Assembly (NCBI GenBank): GCA_001938485.1
Contig: MQRK01250900.1
Span: 1-62,425 of the forward strand
Length of the DNA: 62,425 bases
From: Girardia tigrina
Lineage: Eukaryota
Reading direction: 5' to 3'
Below, in pieces: positions 7,300 to 44,833 of this stretch (the stretch's first letter is position 1; every line of letters starts with the position of its first letter). The position numbers and the translations under genes are program-made. Under the pieces are notes generated by a model. The model did not search any database, had not been told where the DNA came from, and saw only the letters and a list, made by a program, of their open reading frames with translations.

Positions 7300-7600
7300 A
7301 TATCCATTTTTTATGCTGTTAGAAATCTATTTGGCCAAGAGAATTTTTTTTGTTATCTTTGTAGAAGAGAAACTTACTATTACATTTACTTTTTTTGCGT
7401 AATATATAAGTAGATATTTTTATACTAATATTGTTCAGGAAGACCTATTTAACCGAGTTTCCCATTTTGGGACCTTAAGAAGCTTCTTTGATCAAATTTT
7501 CACATAACCATTTATTGTCATCGAGAATGAGTAAGTGTGCAAAGTTTGAAGAAAATTAATTGAGTAAAAAGCCTTCAAAAATATGTTTCTAAATTCCATG
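7300..7600. repeat. Dispersed repeat family (inverted copy at about 43110-43440; short terminal piece at 38663-38703)
   Basis: cccattttgggacc...tttgatcaaattttcacataa...ttcaaaaatatgtttctaaattcc here matches the reverse complement of 43112-43260. Confidence 0.7.
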
Positions 7601-8193: not shown

Positions 8194-10644
8194 TATGGGA
8201 AAGTTGGAAAACACGAACTTTTTTTAATAATTTGGAAAGCATTAACTATTTCTTTAAAATTGGACAATACTTTTTTTTATAAAAATGAGAAAACACATTA
8301 ACTTTTTTTAAAAAAGTTAGGCAAATTTGTTTTAATATATTTAATAAAATTACTATTTTAAAGCCCTATGAATGCTTTTAACATGTAAATTTAAATGAAT
8401 TGTTTTTACTTGCTACTGTTACAATACAAATGACTTAACCTTCCCAATATTGACACCATCCAACATACATAGAAAGTTGTGAAAAAGTGGGTAATAACCT
8501 AACTCGATTATTACCATTACGTGTAAATGAGTCTACGCACATGAAGGACGGCGAACAATACGGGAAGGTCAGTTGACATGAGTATCGGTGGCTGAGAGCA
8601 CAGAGTTCCCGAGACTGAATGCGAATTAATAAATTGAAATACCAAAACCCCGAAAATGCCTTAAGAGCTCACCTGAGAGTGATGGAGGCCGGAAAAACGA
8701 CCCCGACGAAGATTGCCGACCAAGAGGTACTTAAAGTCTTAGAAAGAGACTGAAACATTGTCGGAGACCCCTGAGAAACCCTTGAAGAAATCTAAAAAAC
8801 CAAGGTAAAATTAAAATTAATTAAGAAAATTAATTAAAAACAAACCATCATCCGATTGCGAGACAGCTGTGGAGGCGAGATCCGAATCATCCTGAATGAG
8901 AGATAATTAAATCAGAACATCTTTATGACATGTTTACCAGAACGGCACAATCCGCTTGAATGCCGGTACAGTCGCGGAGATAGGGAGGCCAGTCTTCAAG
9001 CATCAGGTATGGGCCACATGAACAGCGATACAGCGGCATAATTATCTAAATTATAAAGTAATCAGATGGCAATCAGGAACGTAGATAGTTACCACCCGCA
9101 GTTTCATTGAATAGCAAGGACGGAAAATAAACAAATGAACCATAATAATCTCGCAATTCCTCGCATTCTACCACTGGTAGTTAAGTATCTATGAAGCACA
9201 GATACATCCTGCCGTGCTACACACAGGAGGTCGTGAAAACAGTTGCAGTTGTTCCCCCATCCTACAAGACAAGAACATGCCACCTGTTACACACAAATGT
9301 GTAGGTGCGCAGGCAGGCTCAGATTATAAATCGCAGTATAAATAGCGAATCTATTCGTATAGCAAACACAATAACTTATCACGCAATTTTAAAATACCCA
9401 AAACGACAACCTTATTTATTAATATTTTATTCTGCACAACCAGTGATTTTCCATTAATTATCTGCACGAGTGTCTCAAAGTTTTGATTCATTTGGTTTAT
9501 TTTCAATTATTTATTCGCTCGAGCTTCTTGAAGAAGAAATTGAATTTTTGCGAAGTGGCGATATAATTGCATCAGTAATTTTTACATTTGTATTTATTTG
9601 ATTTTATGGAACGTTTTGGTTCTATATATAATTTTATGTTTAATTATCGAATATATCTTTAAAAATATTTTGGTTCTGGATATAATTTTTATGTTGTTTT
9701 GATTCTGCATATAATTTTGTTGAATCTAACTTTAAAGAAAGGCTTAGTCATTTTCTTTATGCAATTCCATTTTAGAGAATATTTTGATGATTATAAATGA
9801 GTAGAGTTAGTTGCTTTATATAGCTGCACAGGTGGATTTAATCTGTTTGTATAATCTCACTGGAAATATCTTTCTGGGACGTTAGTCCTTTACCCAAGAT
9901 TGTCATAGTCATTGTACGCAATCTTACTTTTGAAAATTATTTGGAGCGACGAGATTTCTTAATAAGGAGTCGCGTCTATTCGAGATACCTTCAATGCCTG
10001 AGAATAACTGTCCCGTTTCTAACGCCTCCGTCGATCCTCCCGTTTTACTGTTAATAAGTAAGGGATACTTTCGTTGCCTGCTGGACAATAATATTCAGTT
10101 GAATTTTCAAATATTGTTGAAGTAACTTTTTTATTGCTTTTTGCCCATTGATAACCTTCAGCCCATTTTTGCAGTTCAATAGTTGGTTTCTCTTTAAATT
10201 TTTTATCATTATTTGCGTATTGTCTTGACCATTTTGAAACTGTGTCCAAACATTGTTCCAAAAACCGAGATAAAGGTATTCTTTCTCTGAATGTTTTTTC
10301 TTTTTTTATAACTAGATTGTGCGATTCTAACGCATTGTTTTGAGATGGTGTGTTATGAGCTGCTCCTTCGTACCAGTTTTGATGCATTGAAAACCAGATT
10401 TGCTTCATGTATTCGATAGATACCTTATGTTTTTTGGTAAGTAACTTTTTAATAAGCAAATCTTTTGTTTTCTCAAACACGTCTTTACTGCATGCCAATT
10501 GAAGTGTATCGATATCTTCCATAATATTTTCATGAAATTCCTCATCGGTTACATGAATATTTTTCACCACATTGCGATGCATATGAACCCAGCACACGAA
10601 TAGTAACTTATTTTCGCCAAACAGTTCTTTGAAAGCATTACAAA

Positions 10645-12702
10645 TGTTGGGTGTGATATTATTAATGCTGGATTTTATATTATTATTTTAATTTTATTAA
10701 TTCAAATTTGTGAGTTTCATGTAATGCTTTAGCATCTTAGTTTATTTTGACCCAACATATTATTTAGATATGTCTCTCCGGTAAGTGTCTCTAACTCACA
10801 CTTATTAGAGATTCATATCGTACTCCATCAACCTCATCTGGCCCTTTTATCTCGCCAGTGAAGTCGATGAAGTACCTATTGGGTTCTACATTATATTTAA
10901 ATATATTAAGTCTATGAAAGTCGGCTTATGCTACTTCTATTTAATTAATGATCATCTTATTTTTTTCCTCAACATGTTTTTTTTATTTGATTACTATATT
11001 TCTTACTATAAGTTTATCATTTTCACATCAGAGATTTAAGTTAAAAGAACATGAACAAATTATATGTTTACATTGTTTATTAAAATATAACAAAAGAAAA
11101 GACTAATCAAAGGCAATCCACCCATNNNNNNNNNNNNNNNNNNNNNNNNNNNNNNNNNNNNNNNNNNNNNNNNNNNNNNNNNNNNNNNNNNNNNNNNNNN
11201 NNNNNNNNNNNNNNNNNNNNNNNNNNNNNNNNNNNNNNNNNNNNNNNNNNNNNNNNNNNNNNNNNNNNNNNNNNNNNNNNNNNNNNNNNNNNNNNNNNNN
11301 NNNNNNNNNNNNNNNNNNNNNNNNNNNNNNNNNNNNNNNNNNNNNNNNNNNNNNNNNNNNNNNNNNNNNNNNNNNNNNNNNNNNNNNNNNNNNNNNNNNN
11401 NNNNNNNNNNNNNNNNNNNNNNNNNNNNNNNNTTGAGCCTTTCGCTTCCTCTGCTCCCGCCGCTTCTGAGATCTGCTGAGCACCCCAGAGGAAGATGATG
11501 CCATATCCTCTTTCATAATTGACCCATAAATGTTCGGGTTCGTCACCAGAGACTTCTTTTCTGTATTTGATCCAATCTTGTTTGCTGTTTCTATAATTAT
11601 TTCCGGTTGCTCTTCTGAAACCTTTTCGATCACTTTCTTGTAGTAGTTGGACATATTTTGTTGAATTCTTATCTCGGTGACCTCGTTTTACAAGGACTTT
11701 ATTTTTTGTTGTCCTAGCAAATATTTGTCCACAACCGGTTTGTGAATTGATAGAGGAACGGAATTCTTTCTGTAGTCCTCAAATTCGGTTGTCCTCTTCG
11801 TTAATTCACCATTCAGCTTGTCACATTCGCCTTTCCACTTCTGCAACTCCAGCAGCAGTTCTCTTTGTTGTTTTTTGGTTTCATATTTTCTATCCATGCT
11901 GAATAAGGACGATGAGTGAATTAAAAAAAATAAATAAATAAAAAAAATAAAAGAACAAAAAGAATAATTGATGGAGGCTGAGAGAAACAAATTCTCTTCC
12001 AGAAATGAAACTTGGCAAGGACTTTCTCAAATTTCCAGATCGTCAATAGTCTCGGCAGGCACTATAAGCACCTGCCGTTAATCTATTAACAGATCGGCAG
12101 TCATCAAATTACTTCACAACCTGTTCATATTCCCTACCTGATCGCAACAGTCTCGGCAGGAACTATAAACCCCTACCGTTATCTATCGACAGATCGGCAG
12201 CCTTGATGTGCTCCCAAACCTCCATCAACTTTCAAAAAAAAATAAAAATTACCTAAGAACAAAACAAATCTTTTCAAATAAAATTTATTCAAAGAAAAAA
12301 GTCTGATCATGTGCACAAATTCGGATGAATTTATACCAATCTTTCATCACAAAAACTCACAGAACCAGCAAGCAGACAATTCTCACAGTCAACCTTCAAT
12401 CATCCATCACTAAGTCAATAGTCCTCAGGTAGAAACAACCCGGAGATGGCCAAAATTCCGATCAAACCCACGTCAACAAATCAGGCCATCAAATTCTCAC
12501 AAGAAAATATTCAAATCAACAGTATCCAAGGGTCAAAACCAATTAAAAGTTTCTCTTTTTTAATTAATTAATTATAAATTATCATTATAATGTTTTATTT
12601 TTTGTTTTTTATATTTAGGGAGTTTTTCCATCGCCTGCCTCGGTGCCGGTGCAATGAATAGGCCCGAGGCTGACGCGAAGGAAAAACTCACTAGTACCAA
12701 CA
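10645..12702 (-). mobile_element. TG..CA-bounded insertion (large solo LTR or non-autonomous retroelement) with internal ORF and multiple hairpins
   Basis: Ends TGTTGG / CCAACA; 4-bp TSD caaa/cgaa (one mismatch); interrupts the MULE ORF precisely; includes an N gap at 11126-11432. Confidence 0.75.
11433..11897 (-). pseudogene. Coiled-coil plus Arg/Lys-rich basic protein of unknown family inside the insertion (one in-frame TAA at 11688-11690; runs into the gap)
   Basis: ORFs 11688-11990 and 11103-11654 are in the same frame: MDRKYETKKQQRELLLELQKWKGECDKLNGELTKRTTEFEDY...SRSQKRREQRKRKAQ. Confidence 0.55.
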
Positions 12703-13809
12703 CGAATTGCATCTGAACTATTAGATATTAATGTGTCTACTTTAATTTTTTCACCAATTTTCTCAGTTGATTCTACCAAAGCTTGGAAAATAAATACAAA
12801 GTCTAGTTTCAATTCATTTGTGCAGATGCTGATACCATAAGGATGAAAATGCCGGTCCAAATCAGTTGTACCACTTATCAAAACTTGCCTGCCTTCCCAA
12901 AACAATTTGTATGTTTCATCGGCATGGATTCTGCTTGATTTAATAGCCATTCTTAATAGCCGTATTGTGGAAAAGAATATTCGAAATTGTTTTTCATTCA
13001 TATCTTTATTATCATCATTGTCACCATAATTTATAAAATGCTTTGCCACATAACCTTTGTCATCGTCGTCCGTTGCTTCATTGTGATCAATGCACCATCG
13101 CTCAAGCTCGCCAATACTAATTTTTGTCGGTCCATATTTCTTTTGTCGCAGTTGACTGATGCAATTTGAAATTTGCGTTTTGTTATTGATTTGAACATTG
13201 TTTTCTCGCAATTTTTCAAAATTGCTTTCGGCTTAAATCTTAAATCAAAATATTTTTTTATCTCTGCTTTTAATTCATTAGTTAGTCTGTTTAATGATTG
13301 TAAATTGGTATGATCATGTTCGCTGTCGCTTCTGAAAAGAATCACGTCTTCACTGTGGCTATCAAATAACAAGTACACGCCAGTTGGACATTGGTCACCT
13401 ATCAATTTTGCTTTTTTTGCAGCGGTAATATACATGATTTCCAACTTGAGTATGATTTATATAATGACAACTCCATGTATCTTCATCATAAATAAACGCC
13501 ATTGCAGTTTCTTTATTTGGGTAGATGTGTTCCATTTCCCAGTTACGTTTTCTTTTTGCTCTTCGTTTTGCTTGAATTGCACCATTTTCAACACTTTCCA
13601 TATCGATTTCCTCCTCTGAGACGTATTCTGGAATGCTTGATGTTGCCATTGAATATTGAAATAAATTAGTAATGTTTCTTTGAATTGAATTTGATTGTAT
13701 ATTCGATTGTATACACTGGCCATTGTCCGTCAATTTTAATTTGTTTTTGTTGCTAAAAACGTATTGCAGTGGCATTTTAATATATCTTTCTAAAAATAAA
13801 TAATACAAC

Positions 13810-15198: not shown

Positions 15199-16461
15199 TT
15201 AGGTTATTTAAAAAATAATGTCGTTTTTTCACTTTAATCTTTATAGACAAATATCTCAGCGTCAAATCAACTTTAATAAGCGAAATAACAACCGTTAGCA
15301 TCAATACACTTTTGGCAACTTTGCAAAAGTTTATTTATTCCGGTTGCATAAAATTCTGACTTTCTGGAGGCTATGAAATTATTGAAGGCAGGTTTAGCAT
15401 CCCAATGATTTTCGAAGTATTTCTCCTGGAGGAAAATATCAAGATGTTTGAAAACGTGATAATCAGTAGGTGAGAGGTCAGATAAGTATGGTGGATGATT
15501 CAAAGTTTCGTTGCCAAGTTCGTTCAACAGTTGCATTGTCAGACGTTCGATGTGTAGCTGAGTGTTGTCGTGGAGAAGAATAGGCACCTCCCTATTGACT
15601 AATGCTGGTTGTTGTTGTTGTTGTTTTTGGTTCACTTTGACAATTTCCTGACAGAATCTCTCTGCCGTAATTGTTTCTCCTGGATTTAGGAAGCTATGAT
15701 GAATAACACCGGCTGCAGACCACCAAACAGTCACCATTATATTGTTTTGGAACAATTGCAGTCTCAGAAAAGGTTGCGGAGCTTGATCGTGGTGCAACTG
15801 TTGAGAAGAACATCTCCGATTGTCGTAGAGAATCCACTTTTCATCACACGTTAAAATTTGGTCCGGAAATGGATCATTCTTGTTCCGCAAAGAAGTGATG
15901 ACGATGCCTCAAAACGACGCATTTTTTGATTGTCATTTAATTCGTATGGAATTCATTTATGCAGTTTTTCGACTTCCCAATGTCACACAGATGGTATGAA
16001 ATTGTTCCTCCGCAAGCTCTCGAACTTTTGTGCGTGGATTTGCTTCTACTAGAGCCTTCAAATTTTCATTTTCAATAGCAGGTTTCCGTTCACGGCCATC
16101 ATCATCTTTGAGGGTCTCATCTCCTTCTTGAAATTTTTTGAACCAACGTTGTAACATACGTTCGTTTGTGGTTCCATCGCCCAATGTACCGTTGATATTA
16201 CGGACAGCCTCCGATACTTTGTGGTCAAGTTTGAATTCATATAAAAAAATTGCTCATAATTGCGCTTTTGCATATTGACAACTATTTAAAAAAACGCGTT
16301 ATTTTAAAGTTAATATTTAAACAAAGTATCATAAAAATATAGAGTTTTTCATAAGCTTTAAAATTATGTATAAAACATGAATAAATGATAAGGATTTATT
16401 TCAAAACATGAACAAAAATCAGGACCATTCAAAAAACGACATTATTTTTTAAACAACCTAA
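15199..16461 (-). mobile_element. Full-length decayed mariner (DD34D) transposon
   Basis: TIRs ttaggttatttaaaaaataatgtcgttttt / aaaaacgacattattttttaaacaacctaa, TA TSD; motifs TCDEKWILYDN, LLHDN, PYLSDLSPTDYHVF; frameshifted. Confidence 0.93.
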
Positions 16462-18409: not shown

Positions 18410-21400
18410 TGTAACAACGAATCACAAATCTATAAAATTTATATTTCACTAACAAATACTTTTTAAATAGATATTATTTAAACAAATAATTATCTATATT
18501 TTTTCATGTTAAATATTTAATTTAAGAAATAAATTTAACATGTAACACTCCCCACAGATTCTTCATAACAAGAATCTATATCTACTACATACTCGTTCAA
18601 ATAATTTGGTTTTCGTCTTTCTCTTTGGGGTCTGTTGCTGATTCCCGATTCACTTTGCTTAACACTCGGAGCTGATTCGTTGTTATTTTCCAACATGTAA
18701 TCAGAGTAAGAGTTTCGCGGCGGGTCTGGTTGTCTTGGTCGAATATCTGCTATATGCCGTGGACCGCAAAAACCATCACAATTTATTAAGTACTTTCTTT
18801 GATCCAATTTTCTAACGACAACGCCTCTTGTCCATTGCTTTGTNNNNNNNNNNNNNNNNNNNNNCTTTACCCAGACTAACTGTTGCTCTACGAAGTCTGT
18901 CTTTACCTTATTGTAAACCGGCTCCTTTTCAATTCTTTCGATTATCTCCAAACCGACTGGAATGTACTTGTAAAGTACTGAACTAAGTGTCTCCTTTCCG
19001 TCGGACGGTGTATTGTTATACCATCATAAGGCTTCCATGATACTGATATTCGATCGAGACACAATTCTCTTGATTGTCTTATGATTTCTCTCTATTATTC
19101 CGTTGCAATTTGGTCGATTAATAGCACGGTATAAGACATGTACATTCCACTTTTCCATCAACTTGCTGAATTCGGCTGAATGAAATGTCGTATAATTGAC
19201 AATAATCAACTCCTTTAGAGATCCACGCTCGCAGAACAAATTTGAAAACTCTGTAACAATCGACTTGACATCCTCAGCTTTGATTAGTTTCCATACTGCA
19301 AATCGAGAGAGTCCACAATCAATGATACTTAAGAATTTTTGTTGATCAAATTTTGTGACATCCGCTGCAAGTCTTGTCCAGTTTTCATTGACAGCTAATT
19401 TTCCAGTTTCCCATTTTATTGGTGCCGGATTGACAACTTTGACACTTCGAGATCAAATCCTTTATATCCGCATTTGACACATTTATTTCCAACTTATCGC
19501 ACAGATATCGCATTCTCTTTGCACCTAAATGACATCTGTCATGAAGTTTNNNNNNNNNNNNNNNNNNNNNNNNNNNNNNNNNNNNNNNNNNNNNNNNNNN
19601 NNATTGTTTGGGTATTCTTGTCAGTTCATCAGCCTTGTTGTCTTCACTATTAACAAACTCAATTTTCAAAGTTATTTCGTATTCCTGGCACAACTCCTTA
19701 ATCATTGACAATCGGCGCTTTATGAAAAGTTCGGAAGAGGCTTTCGTGTGTAATTTATTTCGCTCTGATAGTGCCTCAGTTATCCAAGAAACAACTGATT
19801 TGTTATCTGATTTTACTACAACATTCGTTAGTCCCCATTTACTACACAGATTTAGACCCTTTACAAATGCTTCTAGTTCAGCTACGTTTATGTGCCTAGA
19901 ATCATCAGTTTTTCTTAACCACGATGCGTCTTCTATAATATTTCCTTTAACTTCCAATGTTGCCCCAATGGCTATCGAACTGGCATCACACCATATGATG
20001 CCGTCTTTACAATCATCAATACTCCATATTCCTCTACAAGGATCTTCCTTCTTAACTTTTTCAAAACAAATTTGATTTTCTCGAATAATTCGACATATAT
20101 TTTCTCATCCCACTTTCCTTCACTGAGCCTTTTCATGTAGGAGCATGATGGACGTAGCCAACCTGCAACAGGGTGGATTCCTATTAATTGGCCACACAGC
20201 GAATATAACTCGCGACGCGATATTGATTCGGCAAATATCTCGTCCTTGAAATGATTATCTCTCATCCATCTCATCGAATTCTTATCTTTAAAGACTTTAA
20301 CTCCCAACACTCGCACCTCTTTATCCATTGAGAGATTTTCTGGTTTTTTACATTTAAGATTAAATTTCTCGAACAGCATTCTAATTTCGTCAACTGTGAT
20401 TGTAGATTCGTCAATGTAAATGTCATCGATGTACGAGTCGGTGTTTTCACGTGCTCTAGGATCAGAATTTAAAATCCACTTGACAATTTCAGTCATAATG
20501 GCCGGAGCAATATTTAAACCAAAGCCCATCCTGGTTAGAGCGTACTTTTTCCATTAATGATGCATGATTGATAACGCCACATTTCCTTGTGAACGCGAAT
20601 CTGCATATACACCTCTGATAAATCAAGCATTGAAAATCTTGATCCTTTTCGCCGCCAGGTGCGAAGTTTTTCCAGACATATATCTGCTGAGCCACTGTAC
20701 ACATCTACATAATTGTTTAATTTCCTAAAATCAAAGATTGGTCTTATCTTGGATTTGTTAACTTGCAATATTCCAAATATGAGTATAGATCATATCGATT
20801 TACCCATTTCCTTCTCTTCATAATGGATTAAATAACCCTTCTTCATCCACTCCTCAAGGATTTTCATTGTAGCTATGTCTTTCGATTTGTCATCCTTAAA
20901 GGTCGAATGTCAAATTGGTAGATAAATCGGCGCTTCATCTTTCCACTTCCATTTAACCGTCCAATTATCCTTAAATTCAATCTCATAATTGTGTTTGTTC
21001 AGGCTAACACTTGGCACAACACCCGTGACACAACTCATATTGTCACCAGCCTTCATTAGTCCTTCTCCTACACACACACCAAATTCGACAACACCCTTAT
21101 TAATTTTTACACCCCCAAGTTCACTTATAACATCCATGCCAATTATAATTCCCAAATCATAGGGTAAGTATTTCATGACAGAACATTCTACTTTCATAGT
21201 TCTATTGTCTATAGTCAATTCCACATCACTAATCCCCACACATATATCATCGCCATTAGCCAAAANNNNNNNNNNNNNNNNNNNNNNNNNNNNNNNNNNN
21301 NNNNNNNNNNNNNNNAACGAGTTTCCCTTGATCAACCCTTTCAAAACAACAGTTTTTGAGTAACCCGAATCTATCAACGCTGTAACCGACTTGTTGTTAA

Positions 21401-22342
21401 CAATGACAGTCATGGTTGGCAGCGCCGGAAATGTCAGAGGGAAAGAGCCAGCGCCTACAAACTCCCCTGTCCGTTTCCCGACTTGCAATATTTTCCAATA
21501 TGTCCAACTTGCTTACATTTATAGCAAATTATTTGTCCATTAGATTGCCGCTGAGAATTTTCATAACGGTTAACCCTTGTTTGTACCAGATTTCCGTCAT
21601 GTGGCATACGGGGTTTTGTAAAGGAACTCCTTCTACCGCCGCTGACCTCACTTCGTTCTTTAGAAACGATCTTGCCTTCCCCAACGTTTTGTACCGCTGA
21701 TATTGAACTTTGTGTGACTCATTTTTTAATTCTTAAATATCTGCGACTATATTCAACCATTTCGGTTAAATCTTGATCGCCGGCCTGCTCTAAATTCAAT
21801 TGCAACTCGAACGGCAATCCAGCCATAAAGGCCGCCTTGGTCAGATCGTCGATTTTTGATGCCAACATCTTTACTTGAGAAACGTAATCGTCAATAGTTT
21901 GTCCTTCGTAATATTTCATATTAATCAGTTGGCTGTACGCAGATCGTCTGGTTATTCCGAATGAATTGTCCAAGATTTGCAGTACTTCTTCACAGTTGCT
22001 CTGTTCCTTTTCATCCAATTCCATGTATATATTTAACGGAACATCAATCAACAAAAAAGGAAGATATGGGGCCGGATCCAAAATCCCCTGGATTTTCATA
22101 ATCATCCTGAACTTTTTCTTCCAAATTTCAAACTGCCGTTTCCATTAAATTTCTCAAAATGATCGAGTATAATTTTTAAATCGCTTATCATTGTCTGTAT
22201 AGCTTGTAACAACGAATCACAAATCTATAAAATTTATATTTCACTAACAAATACTTTTTAAATAGATATTATTTAAACAAATAATTATCTAAATTTTTTC
22301 ATGTTAAATATTTCATTTAAGAAATAAATTTAACATGTAATA
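18410..22342 (-). mobile_element. Complete compact Gypsy-type LTR retrotransposon (3933 bp), frameshifted
   Basis: 138-bp LTRs 18410-18547 and 22205-22342 (about 3 mismatches); 5-bp TSD CTTTC on both sides; PPT-like GTGGGGAG before the 3' LTR; gag, protease ALIDSG, RT YIDD, RNase H, integrase NGIIERNHKTIK. Confidence 0.95.
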
Positions 22343-23644
22343 CTTTCTTTGAATTTAGTTGAATGTAGGTTAAGTACAATTTTATAAATTGTTCTCGGAG
22401 CAACGAAAAAGTCTTTAAATTATAAAACGTGTAGATCTTGAATTTGTTCCATTAATTTGAACCAAATATAAAAAATTAAAAGAATAAATATAAAAAATCC
22501 ACTCGATTACGCTAATAATAATTAAATTTTTATTCGGTAATGTAATTTTGTCGAAATATTTTGTGGGAAATTTAATATAATGTTTATGCAAAAGAATTAT
22601 TTATTTGAAGGCGATCTGATATATTTTATTAAACTAACATTTATAGCAAAATTTATTTCATTTTCTGTCATATTATTTTCTAACGAATTAAACTACAAAA
22701 AATTGAATAATAGAAATTAAGTATCAATTTAAATCTTTTAAATATTCAAAAATTTTCTCACTTATAAACGGATAACATTTGTTTTAATCGCTAATATCTA
22801 CGAAACAATACCAAGTACAATTTGAAAAAAAGTAAGTGAATAAATATAAATTAAATGTATTAGTTTTGGTTGGAATATCATTTCTGTTTTATGTTAAATA
22901 ATGCATTATTTGATGTCTGGTTTTTGTTATTTTAATGTTTATTGAAAATCCAATTGTTATAGTCATGTGTGTGCGAGTCAAACAAACTGATATACAAACG
23001 ATTCGTTATCAATTACTTCAGCGTCATATCTTTCAATAATTAACGACTTCTCCTGACTATTTTTTCAACGTCAGACATTAATAGAATTGTTGAAATTTTC
23101 TATTGAATTGTTTATTTCATAATCAAACTAGAACAGAGAGTTCGTTTGCTTTACAATCTTTTTTATTGTATAAAACTATATGAATTAAAAAAAGAAATTG
23201 AGTTAATTTATTATTTATGACCAATTTTATAAATTTTAAATTAAAACAATTTTAACCAATCATATTCACTCGAATGCAAATTAAGAGGCCCAACTACCAA
23301 TCGGTGTACAAATCTCTTTTTCTCCACATTAGTATCTAATTCAATTTTATAATTTTGTTTAAAAAAAATTTTCCATCAGTAATTTTTTATTTAAAAATGG
23401 CGTATGAAAACTCACAAAGATATCTACACTTGTAAGATATGGTTTTGTTAATTAAATTATTTTTTTCAATGAATTTTCTGTTGAATGATTCCCTTAAAGT
23501 TAGTCTTAAAAATGTAAATTATCAATTATGTAATAATAATATTTTTTTCTTTAAAATTCAATTCAATTTAATTCACTTCAATTTAATTTTAGAATTCAGG
23601 TGATAATTCATTACACATAACCATTCCATAAAAAAATTATATTA

Positions 23645-28675: not shown

Positions 28676-28799
28676 AAGTTATCATTGCATAACTCTTTGA
28701 ATATTCCTGGATCCTAAAGTTATCATTACATAACTCTTTGAATATTCCTGGATCCTAAAGTTATCATTACATAACTCTTTGAATATTCCTGGATCCTAA
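28676..28799. repeat. Tandem repeat, 41 bp x 3
   Basis: Unit aagttatcatt(g/a)cataactctttgaatattcctggatccta, no spacers. Confidence 0.95.
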
Positions 28800-29446
28800 A
28801 TACTCCTGTTCCATATATCAGCTATACCGTAATCTGCTCAGTCCAACCGATTCAACGTGAGTGTTTGTTTCCTGATATATATGATCATTTTCAATATTAT
28901 TTACCACCTAACATCAAAATCGATTGTTGTGCAGTGTTCTTAAAACAGTTTGAAGAATCCATGATTCTTTGTTTCCTTTTTCCTAATCTGATTTCCGGTT
29001 TTTAGTAATATCCTGGTTTTACCAAATATTTTTATCTTAATTACAAGTTATTGTTAATATTTCTTATAACTATCATTTATTAATAATTATTTATTTATTA
29101 ATAATTATTAATAATTTATTATTAATAATTATGAGTATTTGTACGTATTATTAGCATTTACATTGATGAAAGAAAATTATTTTTCCATTGGATCAGAAAT
29201 CGATTAGAAAGATTCTTTTGTAGAAGAATTCATTTTTTCCAAATATATATGTAGTTCGATCTCGATTACTTATCAAAATGATTATATCTACGTCACTTAA
29301 ATGAAATCAACACTAAACTAATATCTTTCGATCTCAGCATAAATATCTATTTAAATTCTTTGTCTTAATTGCAACAATTAAAGAAGATATGATGTCGATG
29401 ACTTCCTTCCATTTTCGAAACACTACATTCCCTTTGACTCGCAAAA

Positions 29447-34084: not shown

Positions 34085-37000
34085 TAACAGCATCAGCCAG
34101 AACCCCCGTTGTGACTCGACAGTTTTATCACAGTAACGATTCATATTTTTTAATTGTGTCCTACATTTCAGATTGGCGTTAAATCTTTTGGCTATCATGT
34201 TTATGCTATTGAACACAGCCCTGATTGATGGAGAGTCGTCGACATGTCTTCTACAATCTACAAAGACCAATCACACTCTCGATTCATGATGATTTTTAAA
34301 ATTGGTTTCTCTGCAAGTAAAGCATCTGTGACGATTTCTGCGATTGCATTATGTCTCGCCTGTATCAGAGTGCTGTTGGGTTTACACCAACATAGAACAT
34401 GGATCTGTGTTTCTATATCTTGACCACATGCCCTACACGTCGATTGTTGTCTTGGTTTTTTCGGCTTATAATTTGTTGGTAAACTATTTGTCCTTGCGTT
34501 GTGTAAAAATCGCCATTCCTCGATTGATAGTGACTCATTGTATAATACTTTGGAGCTGAAGTTGTGTTCTGCAAATGAGATGGCTGACATTCCAGCCATC
34601 ATTTGTTTGCTCCATTTGTCAAATTTCATTTTGTTATAGATTCTGTGCAAGTGGAAAGTTATACTGTCTATTGAGTGTTTACTTAGTATCATGGAATCAT
34701 TGGATATGTGAACTTTTAAACAAATACCTAGCTCGTTAGTGANNNNNTGAATTTGTAACCCAATGCCTTTCAGGTATTTGATTGAATTCCGAATCTTGGT
34801 CCACCAAGATTTAAATCCATTCTCTTTGTCACCTGTGTTGATCCAGTTTAGGTAATCAGAGAGTGTCCATTCTTCTTTAGTACCGTGATATCTGTCTAGG
34901 GTGTTGAATAAATTGATAAAGGTGAGATGACGCGATGTTTCGTCTGAGCACACCATGTTCCTGTACGCTTGAATTATAGATTGCATTGCGTATTCATCTC
35001 GGGCAGAGACTAAACCTAAACCACCTTTTTTCTTGTCAGCATAAATGTAATCATTGGATGAATTTGGGACCGTTCCACAAATCTTCTTCAAGTAACAACG
35101 AATTTCCACGTCAAGGCCGCTTTTAAAGATAGACTTCGTGGTTTCGTGGTGGCCATAATCCGTAAGTTCCCTGTTTGTATGTTATAGTTTTGAAAATAGA
35201 AGGTGAATCGTGAGTGTATAAAGATTCTATACGCTTCTATTTTCTGCCAGGGAAATAGTATTGATTTGGTTATTTTTTTCAAGTCCTTAATAGTTGATAG
35301 AAATAGACGTTCAGGAGTGAATTTTGTCTTTCTGGTAAAGTCTACTCCGAGATAACGGTAACCTTCTTCATCCGTTACTATAGGTATTGGTATGTTATTA
35401 ATATGGATTGATTCATTCATAAGAGGAGTTGATAAATATCCATATTTGGCTGGGTTAAACTTCATAGAAGTCCATTCAACCATGTCACATACAGATGAAA
35501 CCATGGCTTGTGTAGTCATTTAATTTATATAGGATTTAATTCCTATAATATAATTAAATCGATTAACAAATTGACAAAATGAAATGTTAAATTGTTACAC
35601 GTTGGAAATATATTTTGGAAATATTATTCTCGGTTTTTTTATTTTAAAAAGTGAAGACACTTTCGGTTCTTCACAATTGGATCCCACTTCTGACACCAAT
35701 TGTGAAGAACCGAAAGTGTCTTCACTTTTTAAAATAAAAAAACCGAGAATAATATTTCCAAAATATATTTCCAACGTCTAACAATTTAACATTTCATTTT
35801 GTCAATTTGTTAATCGATTTAATTATATTATAGGAATTAAATCCTATATAAATTAAATGACTACAGCTTGTAAACAAGAGTTGCTGGTTGCAACTAGTGC
35901 AATATCATCTGCATATGCCAGACAAGTAATCTTACCAGCCTCGGTGTCGATACCAAAAGCATCATTATCTTGTAGTGCAGCCAANNNNNNNNNNNNNNNN
36001 NNNNNNNNNNNNNNNNNNNNNNNNNNNNNNNNNNNNNNNNNNNNNNNNNNNNNNNNNNNNNNNNNNNNNNNNNNNNNNNNNNNNNNNNNNNNNNNNNNNN
36101 NNNNNNNNNNNNNNNNNNNNNNNNNNNNNNNNNNNNNNNNNNNNNNNNNNNNNNNNNNNNNNNNNNNNNNNNNNNNNNNNNNNNNNNNNNNNNNNNNNNN
36201 NNNNNNNNNNNNNNNNNNNNNNNNNNNNNNNNNNNNNNNNNNNNNNNNNNNNNNNNNNNNNNNNNNNNNNNNNNNNNNNNNNNNNNNNNNNNNNNNNNNN
36301 NNNNNNNNNNNNNNNNNNNNNNNNNNNNNNNNNNNNNNNNNNNNNNNNNNNNNNNNNNNNNNNNNNNNNNNNNNNNNNNNNNNNNNNNNNNNNNNNNNNN
36401 NNNNNNNNNNNNNNNNNNNNNNNNNNNNNNNNNNNNNNNNNNNNNNNNNNNNNNNNNCAGCCATTGTTCCAGTTGAGTACATAGGCAAGATGTGAACAAC
36501 TTGGCAATGCATTCCATCAGGGCTATTGGTCTCCATGATCCTATATCTTTGTAATTTCCTGACTTACCTGGTTTAGCGTCATCATCTTTTTATATCATCA
36601 TTGCTATTATTATTTTTTTTTATACTGACAGTTTTTTTGAGTGTTCTCAGAGGCAACTTTAATGCCATTCATCGAAAATAGACTTTTGACAATTGCATAG
36701 TTTGATAAAGTGATTTTATGTTCTTTGACAATATTTTGTAAGGTAATCTTTAGCTTAACATCAGCATCTCTAAGTCTAAATGTGCTATCTAGATTGTTTA
36801 GTAATTTTAGAGTTTTATATATTTTATTTTTGGCTTCTTCGTGATTTTCTTTTTTTAGAGAGTCATGAAGTTGCAATGAAATCTCGTCACACAGCAGCCT
36901 GACTGCAATGCCATAGCCATCGCACTGTTTGTGATATCTGTCACATATAGATTCAAAGATGTACTCTAATTTCTCTGGAGAGAAGACAGTCGGAGCTCTA

Positions 37001-42715: not shown

Positions 42716-43776
42716 TTAATAAATTTGATTTTTAATAAATAATAATTATCAAAGGCTTTGAAGACGCAAAACTTGGTCTTGTCTTGTCCATGTATTTTTC
42801 AACTTTATTGTGTCATCTTACTAATACTATTATATACTATGAAACTGAGTAATGTATATAAATCCTACAAAATTTTAAGAAATAAAATTTAAATGAGTTT
42901 TAAAATAATAAGAAATTAGTCTTATAAAAATTCAGACACCGTTCAAATTATTTATTGGAAATTATTGTTGAGTGAAGATATAATTTTTTTAATTGTTTGT
43001 TTTGTCTCATCATGACTGGTGCATCCATCGAAATTAATTAATTCTTTTAAGAATAGATAATTTGTATCATGTATGAATTTTTATTCTATTATTTATATTA
43101 ACTTACTTTCTAGGAATTTAGAAACCTATTTTTGAAAGCTTTTTACTCAATCAATTTTCTCCAAATTTTGCACATTTACTCATTTTCGATGACAATAAAT
43201 TATTATGTGAAAATTTGATCAAAAAAACGTTTTATGGTCCCAAAATGGGAAAAACGGAAAATTCAGAGTTCCAGAACAATATTAATTGTAAAAGATTTAC
43301 TTATAAATTATAAGTAGTTTATATTAATTTTTTATTATGTTTTTTAAAATATTTTTTCAATTAAAACTTTGTTGGCAAAGTAGAGTTCTGTTTGCATAAA
43401 GAATGGATATAAAAAAATATGTTTTTTGATTTACTAGTTAAATGAAACTTAATTTACTTTTTTTCTGACAAAAGAAACTTAGTAGCAAAATCTGTATTAA
43501 CATGTTTCAATAAATAATGTTTACTCCTCATTATTGCTTAGAAAAACTTTGATAATATATCATGTTTAAATATTTAACTTTCTGAATAAATTTTAGTAAA
43601 TATCTTCAATTGAATAAAACAATATTAACATAAAAATTAAAATATTACCATTTCGAAATTCAAAGGTAAAATATTGTTGAAAAATTCAGTATTATTTATG
43701 GTAAATAAAGATATTTCAATTCCGATAGGGTTTTACTTATAAATTTTTTTAATAAATAACAAAATATTAATTTTAG

Positions 43777-44565: not shown

Positions 44566-44833
44566 ACATTAATTTCCAAGTTATAATCGATTGATTGTTG
44601 TAAATATTTTTTGGTTTGGACAACATTAATTCTTTTATTTGTGGCTAAATATATTCTGTCTCTTAAAATTTGAACTTAATTTACTCGTTAAAGAGATTAC
44701 ATTAATTTCCAAGTTATAATCGATTGCTTGTTGTAAATATTTTTTGGTTTGGACAACATTAATTCTTTTATTTGTGGCTAAATATATTCTGTCTCTTAAA
44801 ATTTGAACTTAATTTACTCGTTAAAGAGATTAC
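44566..44833. repeat. Tandem duplication, period about 133 bp x 2
   Basis: Near-identical copies starting acattaatttccaagttataatcg. Confidence 0.9.

Follow-up and report, generated by a model that had tools for sequence, protein, structure and literature searches.

Giant Gypsy elements of planarians, Burro/GYPSM1, were described by Arkhipova and Yushenova, in the accessible text of whose paper the internal region reaches up to 25 kb and holds domains such as MATH, BIR and BCL2, which lie within the polyprotein or ahead of it (PMC6431247). GAG-ENV-POL errantiviruses with an HSV/gB-type env have been reported from Platyhelminthes, Nematoda and Bryozoa by Chary and Hayashi (accessible part of PMC13524379). 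As far as these two texts are accessible, the accessory genes of described LTR retrotransposons lie in the internal region (PMC6431247, PMC13524379). In MMTV, the LTR is long because it encodes Sag, and an acceptor lies just upstream of that ORF (accessible part of PMC3026287). Our literature search found no Ty3/gypsy element whose LTR encloses a gene; Repbase and subscription journals, which were beyond our reach, may describe the LTRs reported here.

Here we analyse a window of 62,425 nucleotides from Girardia tigrina (the whole stretch of DNA under study), in which a 2.06-kb unit is, with near certainty, a solo LTR of a Ty3/gypsy element. The parent is of a known type, a flatworm-style GAG-ENV-POL Ty3/gypsy element; the LTR carries a gene of its own.

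Insertion site and boundaries of the unit

The unit and the gene that it interrupts are laid out as follows:

10645..12702, minus strand: family A solo LTR, from a Ty3/gypsy element of GAG-ENV-POL type; the sense strand is the minus strand
10641..10644, no strand: target-site duplication (TSD) CAAA, with one mismatch (sequence, empty-site comparison)
12703..12706, no strand: target-site duplication CGAA, with the letters found at empty sites (sequence, MULE copies)
10019..10640, minus strand: MULE transposase gene, portion 3' of the insertion (empty sites, Pfam)
12707..13232, minus strand: MULE transposase gene, portion 5' of the insertion (empty sites, Pfam)
11126..11432, no strand: assembly gap of 307 N

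The unit ends given in the preliminary description are present, TGTTGG at 12702 on the minus strand and CCAACA at 10645. The TSD has the claimed length of 4 bp and one mismatch, CAAA standing on one side and CGAA on the other. Insertion into a MULE reading frame is borne out by the uninterrupted MULE copies that we fetched, in all seven of which the two flanks abut over a single CGAA, and the open frame across the empty site matches the MULE family of Pfam (E=2.6e-7). The two sides of the N gap, which might have belonged to different insertions, are parts of one unit: they occur together in 28 of 30 loci, and gap-free copies have 317 bp where the window has 307 N. RT, IN and transposase are absent from the unit, as stated before for its visible part (Pfam on two gap-free ORFs; ORF lists).

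The genome assembly comprises 1.43 Gb in 255,254 contigs. With the right half of the unit, a first look gave 2485 candidates, of which 40 were scored and 30 fetched; candidate numbers are not copy numbers. Twenty of the fetched copies have both ends and are mostly 2.03-2.09 kb long, and every one of these complete copies has its own 4-bp TSD (17 exact, three with one mismatch).

Elsewhere, the window holds a Mariner-type transposase fragment at 15273-15908 (Pfam Transposase_1, E=1.4e-20); an inverted repeat of 170 bp at 35511-35865, 99% complementary and with arms 15 nt apart; a dispersed inverted pair at 7400-7597 and 43113-43310 (84%); a direct pair of 140 bp at 18410-18549 and 22205-22344; a tandem pair of 133 bp at 44566-44831; and a tandem triplet of 41 bp at 28676-28800.

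Parent element and LTR families

Two readings of the unit had been offered, a giant solo LTR or a satellite retroelement. The former stands and the latter is needless, since the 2.06-kb unit flanks gag-env-pol in rarer copies: it precedes the primer-binding site (PBS) and follows IN in contigs C228438 and C180126/C231843, and in C228438 the unit is followed by the 9-nt spacer, the PBS and PR-RT-RH-IN, after which a second unit begins. Exact LTR-spacer-PBS junctions numbered 36 and exact internal-LTR junctions 29, against none for reversed-pattern controls. The solo state is likely to be the leftover of LTR-LTR recombination.

Behind the PBS lie a leader, gag with zinc knuckles, a linker ORF and a gB/chuvirus-type fusion gene, and the Pfam order in the internal region is Retrotrans_gag, zf-CCHC, Monjiviricetes_fusion, protease, RT, RNase H and integrase. 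The fusion gene, an env (PF24664, Monjiviricetes_fusion, E=2.8e-40), is in frame with the protease and is found in family D as well. The linker ORF between gag and env has no Pfam match and no resemblance to the LTR ORF; MATH, BIR, BCL2 and ankyrin domains had no match in the gag-env ORF pieces of two decayed copies with deletions or stops. Integrase at more than 60% identity occurs in about 30 contigs (among 145 rows), all internal copies seen carry stops, deletions or insertions, and about 12 kb lie between the LTRs in one family D copy. Membership of Ty3/gypsy holds despite the missing polypurine tract (PPT), because the class rests on pol and LTR structure.

Four families, A to D, are all present in the host genome within LTRs of 1.8-2.1 kb with TSDs, and the spacer between LTR and PBS is 9 nt in A, B and C as in D. 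The PBS of family D is the exact complement of the 3' end of host tRNA-Pro(TGG) (tRNA-Pro genes accounted for 9 of 12 hits), and that of families A, B and C we take to be for tRNA-Lys. Families A, B and C have a common PBS with two leader types in mixed combinations (L198-L227), and A and C have their 3' 550 bp in common; judging from these sequences, LTR modules appear to have been swapped among the three. The host tRNA-Pro(TGG) genes themselves are in tandem, with a spacing of about 647 bp (L294, L297).

Several further observations concern the internal region. A laminin EGF-like coding fragment lies right behind the PBS in 2 of 30 junction loci (L222, L225/L117; Pfam EGF_laminin) and extends to the protease in one copy; it looks like a captured host mRNA that was then copied, and with only these two loci it is rejected as a family trait. 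A NOMO coding fragment behind the leader is a second host capture (L206, L227, also L210 and L221; NOMO_3rd, E=3.2e-7 in L206). The integrase frame is extended by about 100 residues that make up a hydrophobic, membrane-like tail (L234:1-1281, L232, L238), and the interval between protease and RT (L117:8224-9261) looks dUTPase-like by eye, as reported for Burro, with no such Pfam match. A Ginger-like DNA transposon with TGT..ACA ends is ruled out by the gag-env-pol junctions; a parent devoid of gag, for which the LTR ORF would supply the capsid, was likewise discarded, as gag with zinc knuckles is present.

Putative plus-strand priming site

The plus-strand primer of LTR elements follows a purine-rich rule with an upstream T-box (accessible part of PMC10085805), and PPTs admit single pyrimidines as exceptions (accessible part of PMC3185511). 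In the present element the upstream T-rich tract and the AATG at the U3 boundary are as in retroviruses, Ty1, Ty3 and Tf1; whereas known PPTs tolerate a single pyrimidine, the tract here is C6, and over the 60 nt that precede the 3' LTR purine runs reach at most 3-5 nt at all 29 junctions (found with a pattern that fixed the last 8 nt; five junctions found without the pattern agree). The C6 motif occupies the plus-strand site in all four families, and family D reads CCCA-GTAA-TG in 7 of 7 hits (free gap of 2-6 nt). In sister families, whose IN is about 50% identical and whose LTR starts were inferred without a TSD check, the site consists of a T-tract, a GGG-loop hairpin, a linker, CC(C), GGAGG or GGGAGGAA, and AATG (6 of 9 stretches displayed). 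Because the sister families show the same layout with purines, we regard the site as homologous, with its purines turned into C6. Two sister Gypsy families have a pol frame that continues 3-4 kb past the integrase and a much shorter LTR without the ORF described below (L326-L343).

The most likely primer is the C-rich stretch itself, set by upstream structure; the 3' junction is no better folded than shuffles (z 0.46 and 0.22). An alternative that we consider a long shot is that a tRNA primes both strands, in which case C6 would be an inverted second site where tRNA-Pro anneals to minus-strand DNA and replaces the PPT. Read on the minus strand, the 3' junction is att-TTAC-TGGGGGG and mirrors the att-spacer-TGGGGG of the family D PBS; a scan of two loci placed the best site for the 3' 18-mer of tRNA-Pro at the junction (-21.9 and -19.8 kcal/mol, compared with -42.5 for the true PBS), and 3 of 369 and 3 of 399 windows were as good or better. 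Against this, the G-run alone would win in AT-rich DNA, and in the sister families purines come after the same hairpin-linker-CC arrangement. If it were true, double tRNA priming together with an RNA-binding, SUMO-engaging LTR regulator would amount to retrovirus-like complexity and a new priming route.

We found no C-rich plus-strand site in Ty3/gypsy elements in a literature search beyond whose reach lay subscription journals and bioRxiv supplements. Such a site in a successful family offers a natural test of the features of RNase H-resistant primers, and it accounts for the failure of tools that demand a PPT, or a PBS only a few bases away, to detect these LTRs.

Conserved hairpins and the stem beside the PBS

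The following structural features lie in the LTR:

12617..12693, minus strand: hairpin H1 at the LTR 5' end (z -6.4), common to families A, B and C, not D
12134..12200, minus strand: hairpin H2a, a rod with an internal loop, copy 1 of a 57-nt repeat (z -3.2)
12035..12097, minus strand: hairpin H2b, copy 2 of the 57-nt repeat (z -7.0)
10819..10875, minus strand: hairpin H3, covarying across families
10767..10818, minus strand: hairpin H4, covarying across families
10750..10765, minus strand: 5' arm of a 16-bp stem, AAATAATATGTTGGGT, which in 5'-LTR copies pairs with the LTR end and the pre-PBS spacer
10645..10757, minus strand: the last 113 bp of the LTR, probably U5 (56 bp in family D), with no instance on its own

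The preliminary description noticed at least five hairpins around the ORF; five fold better than shuffles (z as listed, and -9.8 for the adjacent 3' pair), and a sliding scan of one family A copy gave three regions with five hairpins, mostly stronger on the sense strand. In H3/H4, 92% of cells are paired and 11 of 40 pairs have changed on both sides, against 0 of 500 shuffles (13 sequences), a count for which the structure came from the window copy and which related sequences inflate. H2 is also 92% paired (14 sequences), with two covarying pairs, a number reached in 318 of 500 shuffles; H2 could be a DNA site, because its conserved pairs do not covary beyond shuffles. At least one H2 copy precedes the ORF in all four families. 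The H2 core has 246 exact occurrences, and of 28 loci examined, 18 were informative, with 300 nt or more of downstream sequence; the ORF follows the core in 17 of these. One locus, L316, has the H2 core without a downstream ORF and with little other LTR similarity; RNA contigs, too, carry H2 in other contexts, possibly from further families.

The terminal 113 bp had been taken for a sub-unit in its own right. Its bounds, TGTTGGGT and ACCCAACA, and two AATAAA motifs (10693 and 10741) are there; a separate mini-element is not, and AATAAA is not conserved, the equivalent stretch of family B having none. The stretch makes better sense as a loop enclosed by a 16-bp stem that closes on the 9-nt spacer beside the PBS; in this stem the inner TGTTGG and the preceding AAATAATA pair with the LTR end and the spacer. 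At least 14 of the 16 pairs form in 24 of 30 junction copies of families A, B and C (several of the other six have gaps, edges or decay) and in 9 of 9 of family D, with loops of 56-116 nt; the stem is thus kept across the tRNA-Lys and tRNA-Pro families, and its energy is not beyond shuffles (z +0.65, one copy folded). It presumably resembles the U5 inverted-repeat stem of retroviruses. Two other candidates were rejected: a mini-LTR or TRIM, as the 113-bp stretch was never alone or paired in 27 loci, and a ribozyme or known RNA family, for which Rfam gave only sub-threshold generic hairpin matches and none at gathering score.

The LTR-encoded protein

The gene occupies the middle of the unit:

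11433..11897, minus strand: LTR ORF, visible 5' part, with a helical N-terminus and a basic helix; the last ~100 codons fall in the N gap
11898..11960, minus strand: pyrimidine tract and AG directly before the start codon, a putative splice acceptor (from sequence)

As first described, a minus-strand ORF with a basic motif starts at 11897, holds RSQKRREQRKRKAQ and runs into the gap. It has the orientation of gag-pol; the window copy has a premature stop at codon 70, and gap-free copies are open for 258 aa. The protein measures 256-289 aa across families A to D, at 40-50% identity: a database search gave five clusters that form these four sequence families, a profile search of 1.84 billion representatives gave seven hits, all within them, and 31 columns are invariant in 23 sequences of the four.

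The preliminary description claimed an accessory protein of the element's own and named a lack of conservation among copies as evidence to the contrary; no such lack was found, and selection is seen across the four families. Ten uninterrupted ORFs passed the filter for dN/dS analysis (seven A, two C, one D, no B). Between families, silent sites are saturated in 14 of 14 A-C, 4 of 7 A-D and 1 of 2 C-D pairs, with pN of 0.34-0.40 (0.34-0.37 in the A-C and A-D comparisons), and it is this between-family pattern that carries the claim. Within families, dN/dS is 0.26 in 21 A-A pairs and 0.53 in one C-C pair, which is weak evidence because the non-coding stretches diverge about as little as pN: family A copies have a pN of 0.043 and a pS of 0.15, and two of their non-coding LTR stretches differ by 0.068 and 0.039 (15 pairs each), near pN and far below pS. 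From these comparisons, the LTR ORF very probably encodes a functional accessory protein.

The predicted structure consists of long helices throughout and is poor overall (mean pLDDT 62.9, pTM 0.20); the basic helix is modelled as a helix at pLDDT 82-88. The Arg-rich motif was found in 105 instances, most commonly as RSQKRREQRKRKA, and the helix is invariant at E, Q and A positions as well as at K/R, a degree of conservation that would seem to exceed the needs of a bare NLS. The C-terminal tail (FVNLSDLDD, FIVLSDSEN, YVNLTDSDD, FVVSSDSDD and variants, 100 instances) is the second conserved motif. The consensus of SUMO-interacting motifs (SIMs) is a core of hhXh/hhhh with a Ser/acidic flank (accessible part of PMC8616421), and the extreme C-terminus matches such a core and flank in all four families, with the caveats that the consensus is degenerate, that F/Y and not I/V/L comes first, and that family D has only three hydrophobic residues. 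We lean, if narrowly, towards reading this tail, which in the window copy falls within the N gap, as a true SIM.

Relatives of the LTR protein were found neither in Pfam, the ESM Atlas (all matches <0.9) or metagenome contigs nor by tblastn in 20 sister-family stretches, fold matches were found neither in BFVD nor in the PDB, and a PDB sequence search with the C-terminal tail gave nothing. A search for host SUMO through PF11976 gave ubiquitin-like domains, and no SUMO, in all eight loci read. The ubiquitin domains lie in long open frames (L346-L351), one of them beside an Hsp90-like piece and a gag-like stretch, both named by eye; a first look with PF11976 gave 2210 candidates, a number which suggests that a mobile element has amplified them.

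By reading, the pyrimidine tract and AG precede the start codon in all four families. RNA contigs from eight runs cover the LTR in pieces, which is not proof of expression because DNA carry-over of a high-copy repeat could explain such cover; these contigs held no GT..AG joint into the ORF and gave no transcript start, end or strand.

Proposed model and alternatives

On balance, if by no wide measure, we favour a reading of the locus as a solo LTR with a nuclear regulator that would bind the LTR hairpins and engage SUMO, keeping the element expressed. In its parts, the model would run as follows: the ORF lies in U3 and would be read from a spliced RNA through the acceptor-like site, as MMTV sag is; the N-terminal helices may oligomerise; the invariant basic helix would contact the element's own LTR hairpins; the C-terminal motif would engage SUMO and keep the element expressed; the 16-bp stem would present the PBS; and the plus strand would start at the C6 motif, at the position of the sister families' short purine tract. 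That the LTR protein is a nuclear regulator of the element's own expression we consider probable; its direct binding to the hairpins is a tentative proposal, possible rather than probable. A role in chromatin or anti-silencing is also pointed to, because the protein has the SIM-like tail (hidden in the gap).

Among the alternatives, the 2-kb units might spread by themselves, as a non-autonomous element with an RNA of its own, and not be leftovers of recombination; first-look candidates do number 1009-2485 for LTR parts as against 94 for the protease region, and a PBS was present at 0 of 30 sampled 3' ends in one sample and 1 of 27 in another, the one being C228438. Lone units, however, lack the PBS and the pre-LTR motif, both of their att ends are exactly as in two-LTR copies, 27 loci held no tandem or 113-bp-only units, and the fragmented assembly also hides two-LTR copies; we regard autonomous spread as very unlikely. 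Just as hard to credit is an ORF captured as a piece of a host gene and of no use to the element: although the element does take host mRNA pieces behind its PBS (laminin EGF, NOMO), the profile search gave no host relative, and the reading frame, the start context, the position of the stop and the motifs persist in four families between which silent sites are saturated.

Two further alternatives concern the task of the protein. Were it purely Rev/Rem- or Tat-like, the basic helix on an LTR hairpin would drive the export of unspliced RNA or transcription, and the acidic tail, unrelated to SUMO, would be an activation or partner site. An invariant Arg/Lys helix, a rod hairpin that has an internal loop and precedes the ORF in each of the four families, and covarying H3/H4 near the likely RNA 5' end would all suit this role, and MMTV has Rem with a responsive element (accessible part of PMC3026287). 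No sequence or fold link to viral proteins emerged from the searches, however, no leucine-rich export signal is obvious by eye in the protein alignment, and co-divergence is not visible, H2 being nearly constant while the protein is 40-50% identical, and A and C having a common 3' block; we think this role rather unlikely. A similar doubt attaches to an anti-silencing factor that does not bind hairpins, whose SIM tail would interfere with SUMO-dependent silencing, whose basic helix would be an NLS or a protein-contact surface, and in whose LTR the hairpins would serve packaging, dimerisation or reverse transcription. The SIM-like tail stands at the extreme C-terminus in all four families, the IVLSDS of family C also occurs in the Daxx SIM string (accessible parts of PMC8616421 and PMC3174244), and planarian LTR elements are under nuclear PIWI control (accessible part of PMC8532177); yet the SIM motif is degenerate, and the invariant non-basic residues of the helix argue for a specific ligand. 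The SIM-like tail would tie a transposon protein to SUMO-dependent silencing.

Comparison with known systems

The errantiviruses of Chary and Hayashi are like the present element in the Ty3/gypsy pol order, in the gB/chuvirus-type gene between gag and pol, and in a tRNA PBS. In the accessible part of that survey, compared here by description, no LTR or PBS is given for the six Schmidtea and two Prostheceraeus elements, and no LTR-encoded gene or missing PPT was found (PMC13524379). Burro, as far as its description is accessible, is alike in having env in frame between gag and protease, a mononegavirus-like fusion protein and accessory ORFs; the accessory gene here lies inside the LTR, unlike in Burro. 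With MMTV, the element has in common a long gene-bearing LTR, an acceptor-like site before the ORF and a gene that is kept in solo copies; MMTV, however, is a vertebrate betaretrovirus and its Sag a membrane superantigen, whereas the protein here is soluble-looking, helical and basic, and there is no homology between them.

HIV Tat/TAR and Rev/RRE combine an Arg/Lys-rich helix with rod-like hairpins that have internal loops. An Arg/Lys-rich helix and rod-like hairpins recur here, by analogy; in contrast to HIV Tat and Rev, with which there is no homology, the LTR protein has no export signal obvious by eye, has twice the length and carries a SIM-like tail at its end. The Tat/Rev analogy, drawn already in the preliminary description, may serve as a hypothesis.

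As part of the LTR, the gene is retained wherever a solo LTR remains, so that copies of a possible regulator of chromatin or RNA are scattered through the genome in hundreds or more. In conclusion, the locus is a solo LTR of a known element class, whose unusual traits are an LTR-encoded orphan gene under selection, conserved hairpins and a missing PPT.
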